Assembly: GCF_018977255.1 (NCBI RefSeq)
Contig: NW_024704742.1
Location: 85,562,001-85,626,000, forward strand
Reading direction: 5' to 3'
Length of the DNA: 64,000 nucleotides
Origin: Callorhinchus milii
Lineage: Eukaryota
Shown here: in pieces, positions 3,367-49,891 of the stretch
Position numbering within the stretch: position 1 is the stretch's first letter
Layout of the letters: every line of letters begins with the position of its first letter
The notes under the pieces: generated by a model
Told to the model about the DNA's origin: nothing
Database searches by the model: none
Seen by the model: the letters and a program-made list of their open reading frames with translations, nothing else
Translations under genes and position numbers: made by a program

Positions 3367-39861
<36,495 letters not shown>

Positions 39862-40639
39862 GGCAGGTATTGCAACAGCTTGCTGGATGAGCAGAGAGAA
39901 ACATGAAGCAAATTAACGACCAGATTCAGAAACAGATCCACCAGTTAAAAGTTTATAATAATAATCCCTCCAAAACCAAAAACAATAATTAAATTGGTCA
40001 TTTTCAATCTATGACTGTTTGCTGTGCGCAATTGGCTGCCGCGTTCGCCCACAAATATACAGTCAACTCACTTTACAGTATATTCTGTGAAGCGCTTTGG
40101 GACGTCCTCCCGACGTGAAAAGCGCTATATCAAATGCAAGGATTATTATTATTATTATTATTATTATTATAATGTGTATCCTGTAGCTCGGCGATTAGAG
40201 CACTCGCCTCGCAAGCGAGAGACCTGGGTTCAATTCCCTGCGGGGCCAAACCTTGGGCGAGTTTCCTTATTCCACACGCCCGATAATAATCCCTCAAAAT
40301 AAAAGAAAAACAATAAATTGGGTCACTTCAACCCACGGCTGTTTGCGGAGACACTGCTGCGCGCAATCGGCTGTGCCGCGCTTCGCCCGCAAATATACAC
40401 ACAGCCAATTCACTTTTTTACAGTGCGTTCCGTGAAGCGCTTTGGGACGTCCTCCCGACGTGAAGAGCGCTATATCAAATGCAAAGGATTATTATTATTA
40501 TTATTATTATTATCATTATTCTGTGAAGCGCTTTGAGACGACAAGAAGACGCGACGCGATATCAAAGGCGAAGATTATTACTGTTACTATATTATTACCC
40601 GATGACTGACTGTGTAGTTTGTGGGCGACACTGTAATAA

Positions 40640-41060
40640 CAAGACCCTGACCCTGACCCCCCCCCACCCTCTGCCCCCCCTCTGCCCCCCTCTGCCCCCA
40701 CAGACCCCACAGACCCCACTCACCCCCACAGTGGGAATCAGCACAAACGGCGTTACACCCCCACACCACCCGCACCCCCTGACCGCCCGCCAGGAGCTGC
40801 CCAGGGCCCTGACAGGGGTCCCCCCCACACCCTGACCCACCTCCCCGAGGTGACCCCCTCACCCCCCGCGGCCGCCGACTCTCGGGGTGACCGTCTCCCC
40901 CTCTCTCTCTCTCTCTGTCTCTCTCTCTCTCACGTGTTGGCTCCTCGCCACCGCACCGCAGCCTCCGCTGCCCCGGCCCCAGGCCCTGCGCCCCCTACTG
41001 CCGGGAGGCCTCCAGCACAGCCCCTCCGCGCACCGTCGGGGGAGACTCTCTTGACCCCCA
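40640..41060 (-). promoter_or_regulatory. ELP1: CpG-island promoter and probable non-coding exon 1 of ELP1 (candidate donor |gtgag at 40862)
   Basis: CpG-rich unique sequence ~1 kb upstream of the exon-2 acceptor; CACGTG E-box at 40931-40936 beside a (CT)n tract. The TSS cannot be determined from sequence. Confidence 0.65.
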
Positions 41061-44000
41061 ACAACAACAACTTACCATTTACGCCTCTCCACGTCAGGAT
41101 GGGGCGGGGGGGGGGAGTGGGGGGAGTGGAGGGGGGTCCCGCGGTGCTGGACGGTTCAGGGTCTGCACCCGGGGTGGGGGTTGGAGCCAAGAGGGGCGGA
41201 GGGCGGAGGCGGGAGGATGACCGGAGGCACGGTCGAAGGAGGAAGGTGCTCCGGCCCGGGCGAGGGCGGCGAGGGGGGCGAGGGGGGTGAGGGCGGCGAT
41301 GGCGGCGAGGGCAGGCGAGGGGCGGGCGAGGGGCGGTGAGGGCGGCGAGGGCAGGCGAGGGGCGGCGAGGGCGGCGAGGGGGGAGCGAGGGCGGCGAGGG
41401 GGGAGCGAGGGCGGTGAGGGCAGGCGAGGGGCGGCGAGGGCGGCGAGGGGGGAGCGAGGGGCGGCGAGGGGGGAGCGGAGGGCGGCGAGGGGCGGGAGGG
41501 GGGGGGGGGTGAGGGCGGCGATGGCGGCGAGGGCAGGCGAGGGGCGGCGAGGGGCGGTGAGGGCGGCGAGGGCAGGCGAGGGCGGCGAGGGCGGCGAGGG
41601 GGGCGAGGGCGGCGAGGGGGAGTGAGGGCGGCGAGGGGGCGAGGGGGGTGAGGGCGGCGATGGCGGCGAGGGCAGGCGAGGGGCGGGCGAGGGGCGGTGA
41701 GGGCGGCGAGGGCAGGCGAGGGGCGGCGAGGGCGGCGAGGGGGGGCGAGGGCGGCGAGGGGGGAGCGAGGGCGGGAGGGCAGGCGAGGGGCGGCGAGGGC
41801 GGCGAGGGGGGAGCGAGGGCGGCGAGGGGGGGCGAGGGCGGCGAGGGGGCGAGGGGGGGTGAGGGCGGCGATGGCGGCGAGGGCAGGCGAGGGGCGGGCG
41901 AGGGGCGGTGAGGGCGGCGAGGGCAGGCGAGGGGCGGCGAGGGCGGCGAGGGGGGAGCGAGGGCGGCGAGGGGGGAGGAGGGCGGTGAGGGCAGGCGAGG
42001 GGCGGCGAGGGCGGCGAGGGGGGCGAGGGCGGCGAGGGGGAGCGAGGGCGGTGAGGGCAGGCGAGGGCGGCGAGGCGGCGAGGGGGGCGAGGGCGGCGAG
42101 GGGGGCGAGGGCGGCGAGGGGGGCGAGGGGGGTGAGGGCGGCGATGGCGGCGAGGGCAGGCGAGGGGCGGGCGAGGGGCGGTGAGGGCGGCGAGGGCAGG
42201 CGAGGGGCGGCGAGGGCGGCGAGGGGGAGCGAGGGCGGCGAGGGGGGAGTGAGGGCGGCGAGGGGGGCGAGGGCAGGCGAGGGCAGGCGAGGGGCGGCGA
42301 GGGCGGCGAGGGGGGAGCGAGGGCGGCGAGGGGGCGAGGGGGGTGAGGGCGGCGATGGCGGCGAGGGCAGGCGAGGGCGGGCGAGGGGCGGTGAGGGCGG
42401 CGAGGGCAGGCGAGGGGCGGCGAGGGCGGCGAGGGGGGAGCGAGGGCGGCGAGGGGGAGCGAGGCGGTGAGGGCAGGCGAGGGGCGGCGAGGGCGGCGAG
42501 GGCAGGCGAGGGGCGGCGAGGGCGGCGAGGGGGGAGCGAGGCGGCGAGGGGGCGAGGGGGGTGAGGGCGGCGATGGCGGCGAGGGCAGGCGAGGGGCGGG
42601 CGAGGGGCGGTGAGGGCGGCGAGGGCAGGCGAGGGGCGGCGAGGGCGGCGAGGGGGGAGCGAGGGCGGCGAGGGGGGCGAGGGGCGGTGAGGGCGGCGAG
42701 GGCGGCGAGGGCAGGCGAGGGGCGGGCGAGGGGCGGTGAGGGCGGCGAGGGCAGGCGAGGGGCGGCGAGGGCGGCGAGGGGGGAGCGAGGGCGGCGAGGG
42801 GGGAGCGAGGGCGGTGAGGGCAGGCGAGGGGCGGCGAGGGGCGGTGAGGGCGGTGAGGGGGGGGGGGCGAGGGGCGGTGAAGGCGGGCGAGGGGGGCGAG
42901 GGCGGGCGAGGGGCGGTGAGGGCGGCGAGGGGGGCGAGGGGGCGAGGGCGGTGAGGGAGCGAGGGCGGTGAGGGGGGGCGAGGGCGGCGAGGGGGCGAGG
43001 GCAGGCGAGGGCGGTGAGGGGGGCGAGGGCGGGCGAGGGGGCGAGGGGCGGTGAGGGCGGGCGAGGGGGGCGAGGGGGGGCGAGGGCGGGCGAGGGGCGG
43101 TGAGGGCGGTGAGGGGGGCGAGGGGGGCGAGGGGGGCGAGGGGGGCGAGGGGGGCGAGGGGGCGAGGGCAGGCGAGGGCAGGCGAGGGGGGGCGAGGGGC
43201 GGTGAGGGCGGCGAGGGCAGGCGAGGGGCGGCGAGGGCGGCGAGGGGGGGCGAGGGCGGCGAGGGGGGCGAGGGGGGGAGGCGGCGATGGCGGCGAGGGA
43301 GGCGAGGGGCGGGCGAGGGGCGGTGAGGGCGGCGAGGGCGGCGAGGGGCGGCGAGGGCGGCGAGGGGGGCGAGGGCGGCGAGGGGGGAGCGAGGGCGGCG
43401 AGGGGGCGAGGGCGGCGAGGGCAGGCGAGGGGGGCGAGGGGGGGGGCGAGGGCAGGCGAGGGGCGGCGAGGGGCGGCGAGGGGGGGCGAGGGGCGAGGGC
43501 GGTGAGGGCAGGCGAGGGGCGGCGAGGGGCGGTGAGGGCGGTGAGGGGGGGGGGGGGGGGGCGGGGGGGGCGAGGGGGCGAGGGGGGCGAGGGCGGGGGG
43601 CGGTGAGGGCGGCGAGGGGGCGGGGGGGCGAGGGCGGTGAGGGGGCGAGGGCGGTGAGGGGGGGCGAGGGCGGCGAGGGGGGCGAGGGGGGGGGGCGGTG
43701 AGGGGGCGGGGGGGGGGGGCGGTGAGGGCGGGGGGGGGGCGAGGGGGGGCGAGGGGGGCGAGGGGCGGTGAGGGGGTGAGGGGGCGAGGGGGGCGAAGGG
43801 GGCGAGGGGGGCGAAGGGGGCGAGGGGGGCGAGGGGGCGAGGGGGGGAGGGGGGGTGAGGGGGGGGGGGGGCGAGGGGGCGAGGGCGGTGAGGGGGGGGC
43901 GAGGGGGCGAGGGGGGGGGGGCGAGGGGGGCGAGGGGGCGGGGGGCGAGGGCGGTGAGGGGGTGAGGGCGGGCGAGGCGGTGGGGGGGTGAGGACGGTGA

Positions 44001-44150
44001 GGGGGCGAGGGCGGGCGAGGGCGGGCGAGTGAGGGGGGGCGAGGCTCTGGAGGATGAGGGGTCTGAAAGCTCGACTGCTGCCGGTGGGGCGGGCGGGCGG
44101 GGGGGGCGGGGGCCACGGAGCAGGCCGGGCCGGTGCCCGCGGATCATAGG
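41058..44150 (-). mobile_element. L2 LINE 3' fragment split by the satellite
   Basis: (CAA)n tail and L2 3'UTR at 41058-41265. L2 homology resumes at ~44041-44150 and is colinear with the copies at 5335-5640 and 14620-14971. Confidence 0.7.
41265..44045. repeat. ~2.8-kb G-rich complex satellite (GAGGGCGGC / GAGGGCAGGC / GAGGGGCGGT / GAGGGGGGC units) with ~140-270-bp higher-order blocks
   Basis: Directly visible tandem array. The marker GCGGCGATGGCG recurs with its ATG at 41299, 41521, 41660, 41871, 42144, 42355, 42573 and 43287. Confidence 0.95.
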
Positions 44151-44157
44151 GAGTGGC

Positions 44158-44410
44158 AACAACGACAAATTGCCTCCTTTCACGGCAGGAGGACCTGCCA
44201 AGGCGCTGGGCCGTCGAGGATTTGGACGCCAGCCGGGCGTTGGGATCAGGAGGGGCGGAGGTGAGGGGCAGGAGGGTGACCGAAGGCACAGTGGAAGAGG
44301 AGGGTCTTGAGACGGGCCTCGAAGGCGGCAACGGAGGGAGCGAGGAGAAGGGACTGGGGTGGAGTTCCAAAGGGAGGGGCAGAGAGGCTGATGGTGGGGC
44401 AGGCAGGTGG
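44158..44410 (-). mobile_element. L2 LINE 3' fragment, GC-enriched
   Basis: caacaacgacaaattg...ggcacagtggaagaggagggtcttgagacggg matches the other L2 tails in the window. Confidence 0.8.
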
Positions 44411-45223
44411 GGTGGGGTGAAGCCGGCCAGTACCTGCTGCCACACGGTGCGGACAGGTTGGTATAGTTTTAGTGGTGCCCCTCACGCAGGGCAGCATCCC
44501 AGAGAGCTTAAGTACAGTCACTACATTTTACATCCTTTACATGCTATATTTACCAGATGTAAGTTAGGATTATTATTAACCCTCTACGGCATTAATAATA
44601 ATAAACACTGTATTGAATAATAATAGTATTGTAGTTTATGGGAATGGATCCTTCCTATAAATTAATGTCCCCTCCCTGTGGTTTTGGCGGCTGACAACTG
44701 TCTATAATGACAGGGGCTGAGATCAATAGTTCAGGTCTAATAATTACAAAACATTGTATTGTCACCACATTTGTTTTTTTTTGTTACCTATATATCTGAA
44801 GCAAGTGATAGACAAATGTTGCATATTATGATACCTTATCAGAAGCAGCCAGAAGTGAGTTTTAAAATAATAATAATAATAATCCTTGCATATTGTGTCA
44901 TTGAGAGGGCTCAAAGCACTTCATAGAATATATCGTAAAGTATTCTGTGGGTGAAACGTGACAGCCAATTGAGCATAGCAGTGAATTGTGAACGGATTAT
45001 TACCTCCTGAAAGCGATCCGTCAATCGACTAACAACCGGGTTCCTAGGTTCCTACTTACTGCCAGTTAAACAGAGGCAAGTGGAGTAAGGAAAATTGTGC
45101 GCGCACTATTCATTCCACTCAGGGATTCCACAATCTGACTGATCAGAATTGGGAAACTTTTGAAAATGTATTAAATCTAAACCTAATTCAGAACAGCAAG
45201 CTAATGTGTTAACCTAAAAAAAG

Positions 45224-46283: not shown

Positions 46284-47879
46284 CGAATAGCGCCATGAAT
46301 AGTGTCACGTCCCTCGCCCTGCCTGCTCCACTATTGGTGGTCGGGCCTTCAGCCTTTCTGCCCTGACCCCCTGGAACTCCATCTGAGGTGGAGGGGCTGA
46401 AGGCGCGCTACCTTGCCTGCTCCCATGCCTCCTTCAAGGCCCATCTCAAGACCTTCCTTTTAGACTGTGCCTTTGGTCATCTTCCCTCCTCCATTCCCTT
46501 CCCTCCACCTCTCTCTGATCCCATCCCGCAGCTTGGATGTAAACCACACATTGTCATCCTTGGGACATCCTCCTGATATGAAAGGCGCTATATAAATTCA
46601 ATTTGTTGCTATTGTTGCTATGAGATCTTTAATATCCACTTGAATAGTATTGGAGCCTCAACTGTGGGTCCTGAAGTGCAGCTTGAACCTACAGCCTGCT
46701 GAATCAGAGCTGAGAGTGATATCAACTGAGCCAAGCTGATAATTTATGTGACCAAAGGTAGAGCAGATCCTAAAATGATCAACCTGCTTCTCTACAGAGA
46801 AGCTTGCTCTTGTTCAGCAGAATCTGGAAACGATGCCGATCTAATTTAATAGCAAGTAAATGATTAAAAGATCAGATATGTCCCTGAACACATAACAGAA
46901 GTTTATTATTCTTATAAAAGTCGCAGATCCAAATGATAAGGAATTAAAAACCAAAAGTAATGGGCACAGATAATTGAGCCTCAGTTTCCGGAATAACACA
47001 CCCACCTAATGTATTATTTATTCTCCAAGTAGTTAGCTTATCGCTGTTACTTCAGACTAGGTATTGTTTGTCGTATATTCACAATGAAGCTTTACACGTG
47101 TATTAGTAAATTTCAAGTAACAACCTTAGAAACACAGGAAAATAGGATCACGAGGAGGCCATTCAGCCCATTCAGGCTGTTCCAAAAGTTTATTACATCA
47201 TGGCCAATATTTGTCTTTTTGTCACACCCCTTAACACCACTGCATCCACCTGACCATCTAAACCAGACCTTGGTTTACAGTCTCATCAAAAGGATGACAC
47301 CTCTAATAATGCAGTGTTCATCCAAAGTTTGCCAAACAGTGATATCAATGGCAAGCTATGCAGTTTCAGCCGGTTAGACTCCAGCAGTATCCCAACGCAC
47401 ACTCTGGGGTCCCCAAGCCTTGGCCCTTGCCAACCTGCGCTTAATACTTTCCGGAATTATGTAAACAGGATGTGTCCCTCCAGGGAGAGAGTGAGCATTG
47501 CATTCCAACAATCTCTCTCTGGGATTTCCACGTGGAGATGGGACGCATGGAAACCTCAGCTCGGTTTGGGTACTCTTTAAGCAGAGTGATGGGATTTCGC
47601 ATGGGTCAGACTGACCAAATAAAAATACATTTCTACGGTTGCACTGTAGGATTGGCAGATAATGTTGTCCTCTTACTCCAACCACATGAGATTGCAATTA
47701 CAATTCACGATTACCCAATACATCCACAGGCTATTTATTCACTTATTGCAACTCTTAAAAAAAAAAACTTTTTGGCAATGCAGTGGAGCCGCAGTGTGTC
47801 CTGGCCGCACCCTCCCTGCGATCACACTGTGTCGGGCTCGGGTTGTGGGGTAACGAACTCACTGCCTTTGCTCCACTTT

Positions 47880-48630
47880 TCCGGGTTTCGCACCAATGGG
47901 CAGAGCTGCGCCCTCCCAGCGGGCGGCCGCGGAGGCAGGTGGGGGGGCGGGTTTCACGCCCAATCGGGCGGGTTTTTTTTTTTTTGGCGTTGCCCTTCGC
48001 GCGGACGACAAAGGTGTTTTAAAAAAAAAGGTCTGAAAAAAAACTTAAATCTGCAAAATGTGTTCGGCCTCGATAGACCTTTCATGACACCGGTTTTTTT
48101 TTAAAAAAAAAGCGCCGACTTAAATTGGCCGCTCAGCCACCTCGAGCGGGCGACTTTTGGGGCTACTTTTGGGCAATATTGAGCTGCTTTGGGGGCTGGT
48201 GTTTGGGCTACTCCGCTTTGCACCGAGAGAGAGAGAGAGAGAGGGGGGCAGCGGGGGCGCTGAGCCGGGAAACTCCTCAACTCAGTCACCTCTCACACCC
48301 TCAGTTATTCTCAGCGTGTGAGACCCAGAGAGAAGTTCCCGCAAATGTTTTGCAATGCACGACATGATTGCTGATGGGAACAGAGCGGGCGGGCGGGGCG
48401 GGTTGGGCGGGCTGGGCTGGGCGGGTGGGGTGGGGCGGGTTGGGCGGGCTGGGCTGGGCGGGTTGGGGCGGGTTGGGCGGGCTGTTGCAGTTGCTGCTCA
48501 GAGAGAGAGAGAGAGAGAGAGCAGCAGAAAGACAGCACAGGAGCGTCAGCTGTTAATGTAACGCTGAAGGGGTGACAGCAGACACACACCAGGCACAGAG
48601 AGGCAGAGAGAGAGAGAGAGAGAGAGGTAG
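47880..48630 (+). promoter_or_regulatory. TBC1D2: CpG-rich promoter and probable non-coding first exon of TBC1D2
   Basis: Tandem GGGCGG GC-box array at 48385-48482; CCAAT at ~47893 and ~47960; (GA)n tracts; candidate donor GAG|gtaggc at 48627; ~0.9 kb upstream of the ATG. Confidence 0.55.
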
Positions 48631-49258
48631 GCAAAACTCTTGACAAGCCAGATCCTTGCAAATCCTTTTTCATTCGGATCAGGACAGCCTGAGGATTGAA
48701 GCGCCCCCTTCCTTTTTTTTTTGCAACTTTTTTCAGACCTGACTATTCCCTGACGAGACTATTATTTCCTGTTGATTGTATACAGTGCAATCTTGTTGAT
48801 CAGGAAACAGATATTGCTTTCTTCTTGTTTTAACTGTTTGCTTCGAAAGACTAATATTACTATACACCTGAAATAATAATAATAATAATCCTCGCATTTG
48901 ATATAGCGCTTTTCACGTCGGGAGGACGTCCCAAAGCGCTTCACAGTAGACACTGTAAAGTGAATTGACTGTATATTTGTGGGCGAACGCGGCAGCCAAT
49001 TGCGCACAGCAATGTCCCACAAACAGTCGTAGATTGAAAATGATCAATTTATTATTGTTTTTGGTTTTTTGGAGGGATTATTATTAGGCTCTGTGTGGAG
49101 TAAGGAAACTTGCCCAAGGTTTCGCCCTCTGCCTGGAATTGAACTCAGGTCTCTCACTTGCAAAGCGAGTGCTCTAACCACTGATCATTGTGTCTGTCTC
49201 CTCCCCCCCCCACCCCACCTCCCACCACCCAAAGAATATTAAAAGTTCTCTGAGAAAT

Positions 49259-49477
49259 TTGGTGGATTTCAATACAGTACTGCTGGAATTCAGTACAACA
49301 CTGGTGGATTTCATTACCACACAAAATACAGTCAGTCCACTTTACAGGATATTCTGTGAAGCGCTTTGAGACTCAACAACGCTATATCAAATGCAAGGAT
49401 TATTATTATAACACTGCTGGATTTAATTGCAAAACTGCTGGCTTTCATTATAGCATTGCCGGATTTCAATACCAGCA
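49259..49477 (+). repeat. 21-bp minisatellite (6 units, consensus ~CTGCTGGATTTCAATACAACA) interrupted by a SINE tail
   Basis: Units at 49259, 49280, 49301, 49414, 49435 and 49456; SINE tail at ~49322-49410. Confidence 0.75.
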
Positions 49478-49891
49478 ATGGCAGGCGAATTACTAGTGGG
49501 TAAATCTGGTCAGACTGAAGGTTGCCCAGCAGCTCAGACAGATCACCAGTGCCACAGTGATGTGGACGAGGAAATGCAGTTACTAAGACTGGATAACTTG
49601 GACGATCAGTCAGACCCCTCGTATTTGAAACCCTCGAATGAAGAGCAGGAGGTGCCCACTAAACTGTGCGGCTACCTGAACAAGCTGGGAGGGAAAGGAC
49701 CGCTCAAAGGTTGCAAAACACGCTGGTTTGTGTACAACGAGAAGAATTGCCACCTGTATTACTTCCGAACCGCCCAGGATGTCAACCCGCTCGGGAGCAT
49801 CGACCTGTCGCACGCTGCATTCATTTACAGCCTGGAAACCGAGGAAGGAACCTTCGAAATCAGAAGCCCAGAAAAGGATTATACTCTGAAG
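49478..49891 (+). CDS. TBC1D2: TBC1 domain family member 2 (Armus), first coding exon with PH domain (138 codons)
   Basis: KLCGYLNKLGGKGPLKGCKTRWFVYNEKNCHLYYFRTAQDVNPLGSIDLS...EEGTFEI..P...YTLK|gtgagt matches the TBC1D2 N-terminal PH domain. No later exon was recognised in the window. Confidence 0.9.

Follow-up and report, generated by a model that had tools for sequence, protein, structure and literature searches.

A G-rich minisatellite of about 2.8 kb was found inside the 3' fragment of an old LINE, beside the likely promoter of ELP1 in Callorhinchus milii. It probably grew in place by slippage and block duplication, unselected and with near-neutral effect. The main features of the window, which is the whole stretch of 64,000 nucleotides analysed, are as follows.

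3370..39861, minus strand: coding region of ELP1, from 33 tblastn pieces of C. milii ELP1 (residues 1-1334).
39712..39882, minus strand: first coding exon of ELP1, with the ATG at 39861 and a splice acceptor before it; its splicing to the following exon is seen in an RNA-like run.
40600..41100, minus strand: GC-rich, CpG-rich region with 62-77% GC, its sense strand for ELP1 being rich in G; putative ELP1 promoter or 5' region.
41058..41258, minus strand: 3' end and tail of the host LINE (L2-type), in the same sense as ELP1; GC-shifted (AT>GC 23, GC>AT 9).
41259..44045, plus strand: G-rich minisatellite of 9-10-bp units, the commonest being GGGCGGCGA, with about 277-298 units; the plus strand is the G-rich strand and the template strand of ELP1.
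41259..42760, plus strand: young part of the array, with higher-order blocks of 139-273 bp and exact repeats; 54-73% of 31-mers recur.
43360..44045, plus strand: degenerate array end, rich in G runs of up to 17; the share of recurring 31-mers declines from 21% to 0%.
44046..44154, minus strand: continuation of the host LINE past the array (profile positions 238-338); a weak match, above all shuffles.
44156..44472, minus strand: second, separate LINE 3'-end copy directly behind the host copy; GC-shifted (15:11).
47800..49891, plus strand: second CpG-rich region with the first coding exon of a TBC1D2-like gene (49478-49891), 3.7 kb past the array.

As shown by TRF and by base composition, the array is real in the assembly. 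TRF called it at 41259-44029 (period 9, 297.7 copies, 80% matches) with a score of 2740; the runner-up array in the window scored 156. The 2787 bp from 41259 to 44045 comprised 1961 G, 421 C, 344 A and 61 T (70% G). The observed/expected ratio of CpG was 1.26-1.34 in the array versus 0.47 for the window, and the array held 388 of the window's 1476 CpGs. An earlier note, made from the sequence without database searches, had described a G-skewed, CpG-dense array of 2.8 kb, and TRF, base counts and CpG ratio bore this out. According to G4Hunter, 84% of the 25-nt windows within the array scored at least 1.5 versus 1.4% elsewhere, and the mean motif score of the array was 1.92. The array also contained 76 minimal G3 motifs, 144 GGGCGG boxes and 138 GGG per kb over its 2787 bp, with the longest G runs at 17. 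Motif scores and composition agree with the same note in placing a kilobase-scale, G4-capable and CpG-dense block against the CpG-rich region upstream of the ELP1 coding start. One higher-order block folded into a hairpin no better than shuffled sequences (z 0.65; 147 of 200 as good). The array was rejected as protein-coding; the open frames on both strands were of low complexity, as expected at 85% GC.

Splitting of the array at the GA boundary gave 277 units. The commonest was GGGCGGCGA (63 of 277), followed by GGGCAGGCGA (31 of 277), and the basic unit was 9-10 bp long instead of the 24-mer proposed earlier. A rare 14-mer marker was present at eight places in the whole array, seven of them within 41259..42760. 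Its spacings of 222, 139, 211, 273, 211, 218 and 714 bp correspond to higher-order blocks of about 210 bp, and exact repeats of up to 140 bp were found (41301 and 42701). The proportion of recurring 31-mers was 54-73% in 41259-42758 and went down to 5% and 0% past 43659. The block repeats and the decay of recurring 31-mers from left to right indicate that amplification is more recent in the half facing ELP1 than at the far end. Block copies differed chiefly by one G in homopolymer runs. Two recurrent unit variants were of the CpG-deamination type, CGA>TGA (51 units) and GCGG>GCAG (32 units); they reveal little about methylation, as they may go back to only two or three founding events.

A profile of the LINE 3' end, built from 12-13 other copies in the window, was used to place the flanks of the array. 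The left flank matched profile positions 72-175 with 33.5-34.8 bits. The right flank matched positions 238-317 with 7.3-7.6 bits (E about 0.014), a weak match alone, and both flanks in one colinear alignment scored 39-41 bits. The observed score was reached by none of 200 dinucleotide shuffles for the left flank and by none of 200 for the right flank. When the profile was rerun over the whole window, 41058-41246 corresponded to model positions 15-173 and 44048-44154 to positions 239-338. About 60 LINE positions are replaced by 2.8 kb of array. As the flanks lie in order on one LINE 3' end, the alignment places the array within a single L2-type copy. The earlier note had read 41058-41265 and the sequence resuming at about 44041 as colinear L2 flanks, and had given two unrelated L2 copies as the competing case; the profile and the shuffles side with the colinear flanks. 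Within the left flank, a G-run insertion of about 32 bp was located at 41099-41136. The second LINE 3' end (44156-44472), oriented like the host copy and directly next to it, is CpG-rich with 66% GC.

The LINE copy at 5330-6700, which has the same 3' end as the host, contained an RVT_1 match at 6178-6471 (E 2.4e-08). Two of the five frames tested gave an RVT_1 match, the other one being in a different element. The host belongs to a family of non-LTR retrotransposons in which a reverse transcriptase precedes this 3' end. We take the family to be L2, following the earlier note and typical motifs; CR1 is the alternative clade. With the majority base taken as ancestor, changes of AT>GC versus GC>AT numbered 23:9 in the left flank and 10:8 in the right flank (33:17 together). 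The pooled ratio in the 12 other copies was 126:329, GC>AT being in excess in every one, and the two flanks differed from these copies with a Fisher p of 1.7e-7.

The derivation of the unit from a particular L2 segment, as suggested earlier, fared less well. Of 21 probe-by-copy tests, just 3 had the missing interval ahead of all windows outside it, and these came from a single one of the seven LINE copies; in the other 18 tests other G-rich LINE windows matched the array probes equally well or better. The 3' part of the LINE is G-rich throughout. A seed in the named segment is plausible from its position and was not singled out by sequence comparison.

The neighbouring gene was ELP1 on the minus strand, near-identical to the C. 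milii ELP1. Many of the tblastn pieces showed 95-100% identity, most of the differences falling at exon edges, and three of the four ELP1 exons tested matched Pfam PF04762. The fact that a splice acceptor precedes the ATG exon indicates that a non-coding first exon exists. The array is 1,377 bp from the ATG exon (start 39882), not a few hundred base pairs upstream of exon 1 as previously stated, and the non-coding first exon was not located. The GC- and CpG-rich region begins at about 40600 and reaches into the LINE flank; the GC skew flips at about 41100. The composition of 40600-41100 fits an ELP1 start site nearby. The right-hand skew is no independent evidence of a start site, since it is inherited from the LINE. 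Over the 9.6 kb that precede the ATG exon, the best splice-donor-like site was in the host LINE tail on the minus strand (intron start 41075). About 20 bp further upstream of this donor, in the region 41058-41100 on the minus strand, is a TGACGT which we take to be CRE-like. The interval 39960-40600, which separates the ATG exon from the GC-rich region, holds a cluster of SINE and LINE-tail pieces of very high copy number, with an unusually high CpG ratio of 1.2-1.4. This cluster includes a good GC-type donor at 40207 and could be exonised.

Four of the 24 public sequence runs listed were then compared with the region 38980-41300. All were contigs from short reads; none of the listed runs is on record as RNA, and the RNA nature of X5 and X9 is a guess. 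A contig of X9 joined 39709-39883 to 39036-39185 and ended at 39883; the junction indicates that ELP1 is spliced as predicted. A contig of X5 matched 39709-39884 and carried 68 further letters, not displayed, and two shared letters at its edge indicate that the upstream exon ends in AG. The ELP1 first exon was sought through the X5 and X9 contigs and through donor sites upstream of the ATG exon, and was not placed. The depth of X5 was 0 over 40696-41007 and 0.57 over 41008-41085 (40887-40938 being skipped in the alignment). The depths expected for donors at 40840, 40933 and 41075 were 5.5/29, 34.5 and 5.0, respectively. With depth below expectation, these donors were discounted for the X5 contig only; missing cover proves nothing. 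The first exon may lie inside the LINE flank and end at a poor GC donor at 41084. There the summed depth fits about 68 letters, provided that the G run is shorter in that allele, but the depth may also stem from repeat pile-up. It may also be an exonised SINE ending at the GC donor 40207, or the start may lie beyond the array.

Two DNA-like runs covered the junction. X1 carries the same species label and X15 comes from a second organism. Depth over 41242-41300 was 7.3 in X1 versus 5.4-9.5 in unique sequence, and 37.3 in X15 versus 36.5 in unique sequence; over SINE and LINE tails it was 10^5-10^7. Such near-single-copy cover of the junction speaks against an array that is purely an artefact or belongs to a dispersed satellite, although contig depth is no copy number. 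Both X1 and X15 had two records over an end of 38980-41300, only one of which accounts for the first bin. The record counts, deduced from binned depth, indicate that the junction and the first array units exist in both runs. X15 differed from the window over 38980-39877 by 96 other letters and 28 gaps (about 89% alike), and single-copy-like depth was also seen in 40696-40773 and 40930-41007. These deductions give only a hint that the LINE flank and the repeat seed are older than the split from the second organism. The similarity of X15 spans the first two coding exons of ELP1 with their intervening intron, and towards the promoter its contig continues for another 688 letters. Contigs from within the array did not pile up at 41259-41300, though 45 places of the array match this segment within six errors; GC dropout, filtering or a shorter allele could each account for this.

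We propose that the array arose as follows. A LINE 3' end upstream of the ELP1 coding start has had some 60 of its positions swapped for the array, as its two flanks show. The host copy and its neighbour, as counted above, have shifted towards G/C, opposite to the 12 other copies of the window, possibly because they lie in a CpG island free of methylation or where gene conversion is GC-biased. A G-rich LINE stretch would then have given rise to a few GGGCGGCGA-like units, which expanded by slippage into a long array, possibly aided where G-quadruplexes stalled replication or repair. The ELP1-facing half is newer and was amplified as blocks of about 210 bp, with the far end left degenerate. Turnover would thus be polar and is probably ongoing, in which case the length would vary between animals. 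ELP1 may tolerate the array because it likely lies outside the core promoter and because its G-rich strand is the template, so that no G-rich repeat RNA would be produced in the ELP1 direction. This last step could fail, since the array may be in intron 1 if the start lies beyond it.

Two points about the LINE tell against this history. The LINE could be an incidental host, as the seed was favoured in 3 of 21 tests and LINE 3'-end matches cover 9% of the non-array window, and the LINE match of the right flank amounts to a weak 7-11 bits. If the LINE is host and not seed, the array would have arisen by G-run slippage in a CpG island, or would have been copied in from another G-rich locus, replacing about 60 bp of LINE. 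The 18 of 21 tests in which outside G-rich LINE windows matched equally or better agree with such an origin, as do nearby G-run expansions unlike the LINE consensus. However, the array starts and ends at the GGAGGC-rich stretch of the LINE, which is unit-like by eye in the alignment. Furthermore, two 12-13-mer array motifs tested had no copy elsewhere in the 64-kb window, and the depth of the junction was near single-copy. We regard a host-only LINE as unlikely. That a shorter real repeat was lengthened or corrupted in the consensus is quite improbable. The differences of one G in homopolymers, by which the block copies mainly differ, resemble long-read errors, and no run spanned the array. 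Yet mis-assembly would hardly produce variant units in order and blocks of distinct lengths (139-273 bp), and two runs each had a record apparently continuing past 41300 into the array, as deduced from the count of end records.

The neutrality of the array may likewise be questioned, since a promoter could be affected by 388 CpGs and 144 GGGCGG boxes next to it. The array might be a functional promoter VNTR like the insulin ILPR, which would bind GC-box factors or fold into G4 and i-motif structures and whose length or methylation would tune ELP1 and perhaps the TBC1D2-like gene. It directly adjoins the CpG-rich region upstream of ELP1, and its 138 GGG per kb and GGGCGG boxes would suit such a function. 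Variants of the ILPR regulate an insulin-promoter reporter, according to the available part of PMC12852952, and methylation at the TSS is inversely related to expression in the elephant shark (available part of PMC5437953). The analysis of contigs and donors did not, however, place the ELP1 TSS, and we consider a regulatory VNTR doubtful. It is very improbable that an exapted LINE 3' end forms the ELP1 promoter or first exon in holocephalans, common to a second chimaera-like lineage, and that its segment grew into a multi-kilobase G4/i-motif VNTR tuning Elongator expression. If true, one retroelement copy would have given an essential housekeeping gene both its promoter and its rheostat. Growth by slippage and block duplication in the LINE 3' fragment is the explanation that we prefer.

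Both parts of the preferred explanation have parallels, since TE-hosted minisatellites (PMC9659126) and long G4 regions (PMC7293029) are common in vertebrates, as far as the available text of these sources goes. In the accessible portion of PMC9659126, 7276 human minisatellites are derived from TEs, and in the mouse (GGCAGA)n came from SINE B1 and Ms6-hm from MaLR. The array resembles these in that a short G-rich unit was amplified in one retroelement copy and the element resumes on both sides. It differs in that its host is the 3' end of an L2-type LINE and its seed was not singled out. Long G4 regions (LG4) are defined by at least 80 GGG per kb over about 1.5 kb; 301 human loci of 199-4973 bp are given, and among those associated with genes about 12% are found upstream of the TSS (PMC7293029, available part). 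The array passes this density rule (138 versus at least 80 GGG per kb), and its 2787 bp fall within the size range of the same source. Its G-rich strand serves as template for the gene downstream, which is how upstream LG4 are more often oriented in the available text of PMC7293029 if "transcribed strand" there means template. Unlike the human LG4, the array is in a cartilaginous fish, and its G4 capacity is taken from motif scores.

By analogy, the closest functional model for the array is the insulin promoter VNTR, which it resembles more than FMR1 or C9orf72. The INS VNTR (ILPR) is located 363 bp upstream of the insulin TSS in the available part of PMC12852952. Both are mosaics of variant G-rich units near a promoter, with G4 potential on one strand and a C-rich other strand. 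The ILPR is polymorphic and regulatory in the same part of that source, whereas the ELP1-side array is CpG-dense, LINE-hosted and a candidate only. The repeats at FMR1 (CGG), C9orf72 (GGGGCC) and CSTB (dodecamer) are rare pathogenic expansions of single units in a 5'UTR, first intron or promoter (PMC11006399, available part). Like the array, they are repeats rich in GC and CpG at a gene's 5' end, and CSTB is the nearest of the three. In contrast to them, the array is heterogeneous, is present in the reference genome and would not have its G-rich strand in the ELP1 RNA. The comparison with FMR1 and C9orf72 made in the earlier note is weak. Those loci have short-unit repeats inside the transcript, to judge from the available text of PMC11006399, and the array is a mosaic with a G-rich template strand. 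A repeat of that type would have a single short unit and a G-rich RNA. Here the top unit made up 63 of 277 units, and the G strand of the array was plus with ELP1 on minus. No description of the array locus was found among the matches listed, judged by title and the beginning of the abstract.

The locus joins three known processes, namely a retroelement-hosted minisatellite, a GC-ward drift of repeats in CpG islands and polar block amplification. If the LINE supplies the ELP1 start or the length of the array alters ELP1 output, a kilobase-scale CpG/G4 block would be tolerated beside an essential gene without silencing. Methylation at the TSS is linked to silencing in the elephant shark, as described in the available part of PMC5437953. 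The point of most interest is the position of the ELP1 start, since the LINE flank may hold it.

The TBC1D2-like exon beyond the array encoded a PH domain (PDB 2DHK, E 1.6e-28), and this gene and ELP1 are divergent, in a head-to-head arrangement. In the interval from the array to the exon, none of 78 frames of at least 40 aa matched Pfam, a search that short exons would escape. In human the head-to-head neighbour of ELP1 is ABITRAM. Four smaller G/C-run expansions were found in the same two CpG-rich regions (40645-40735, 41099-41136, 44086-44112 and 48385-48484), which indicates that local slippage is general in these regions. Those at 48385-48484 (a 37-bp unit of 2.8 copies) and 40645-40735 (a C-rich unit of 10-11 bp) look like the same process in miniature.
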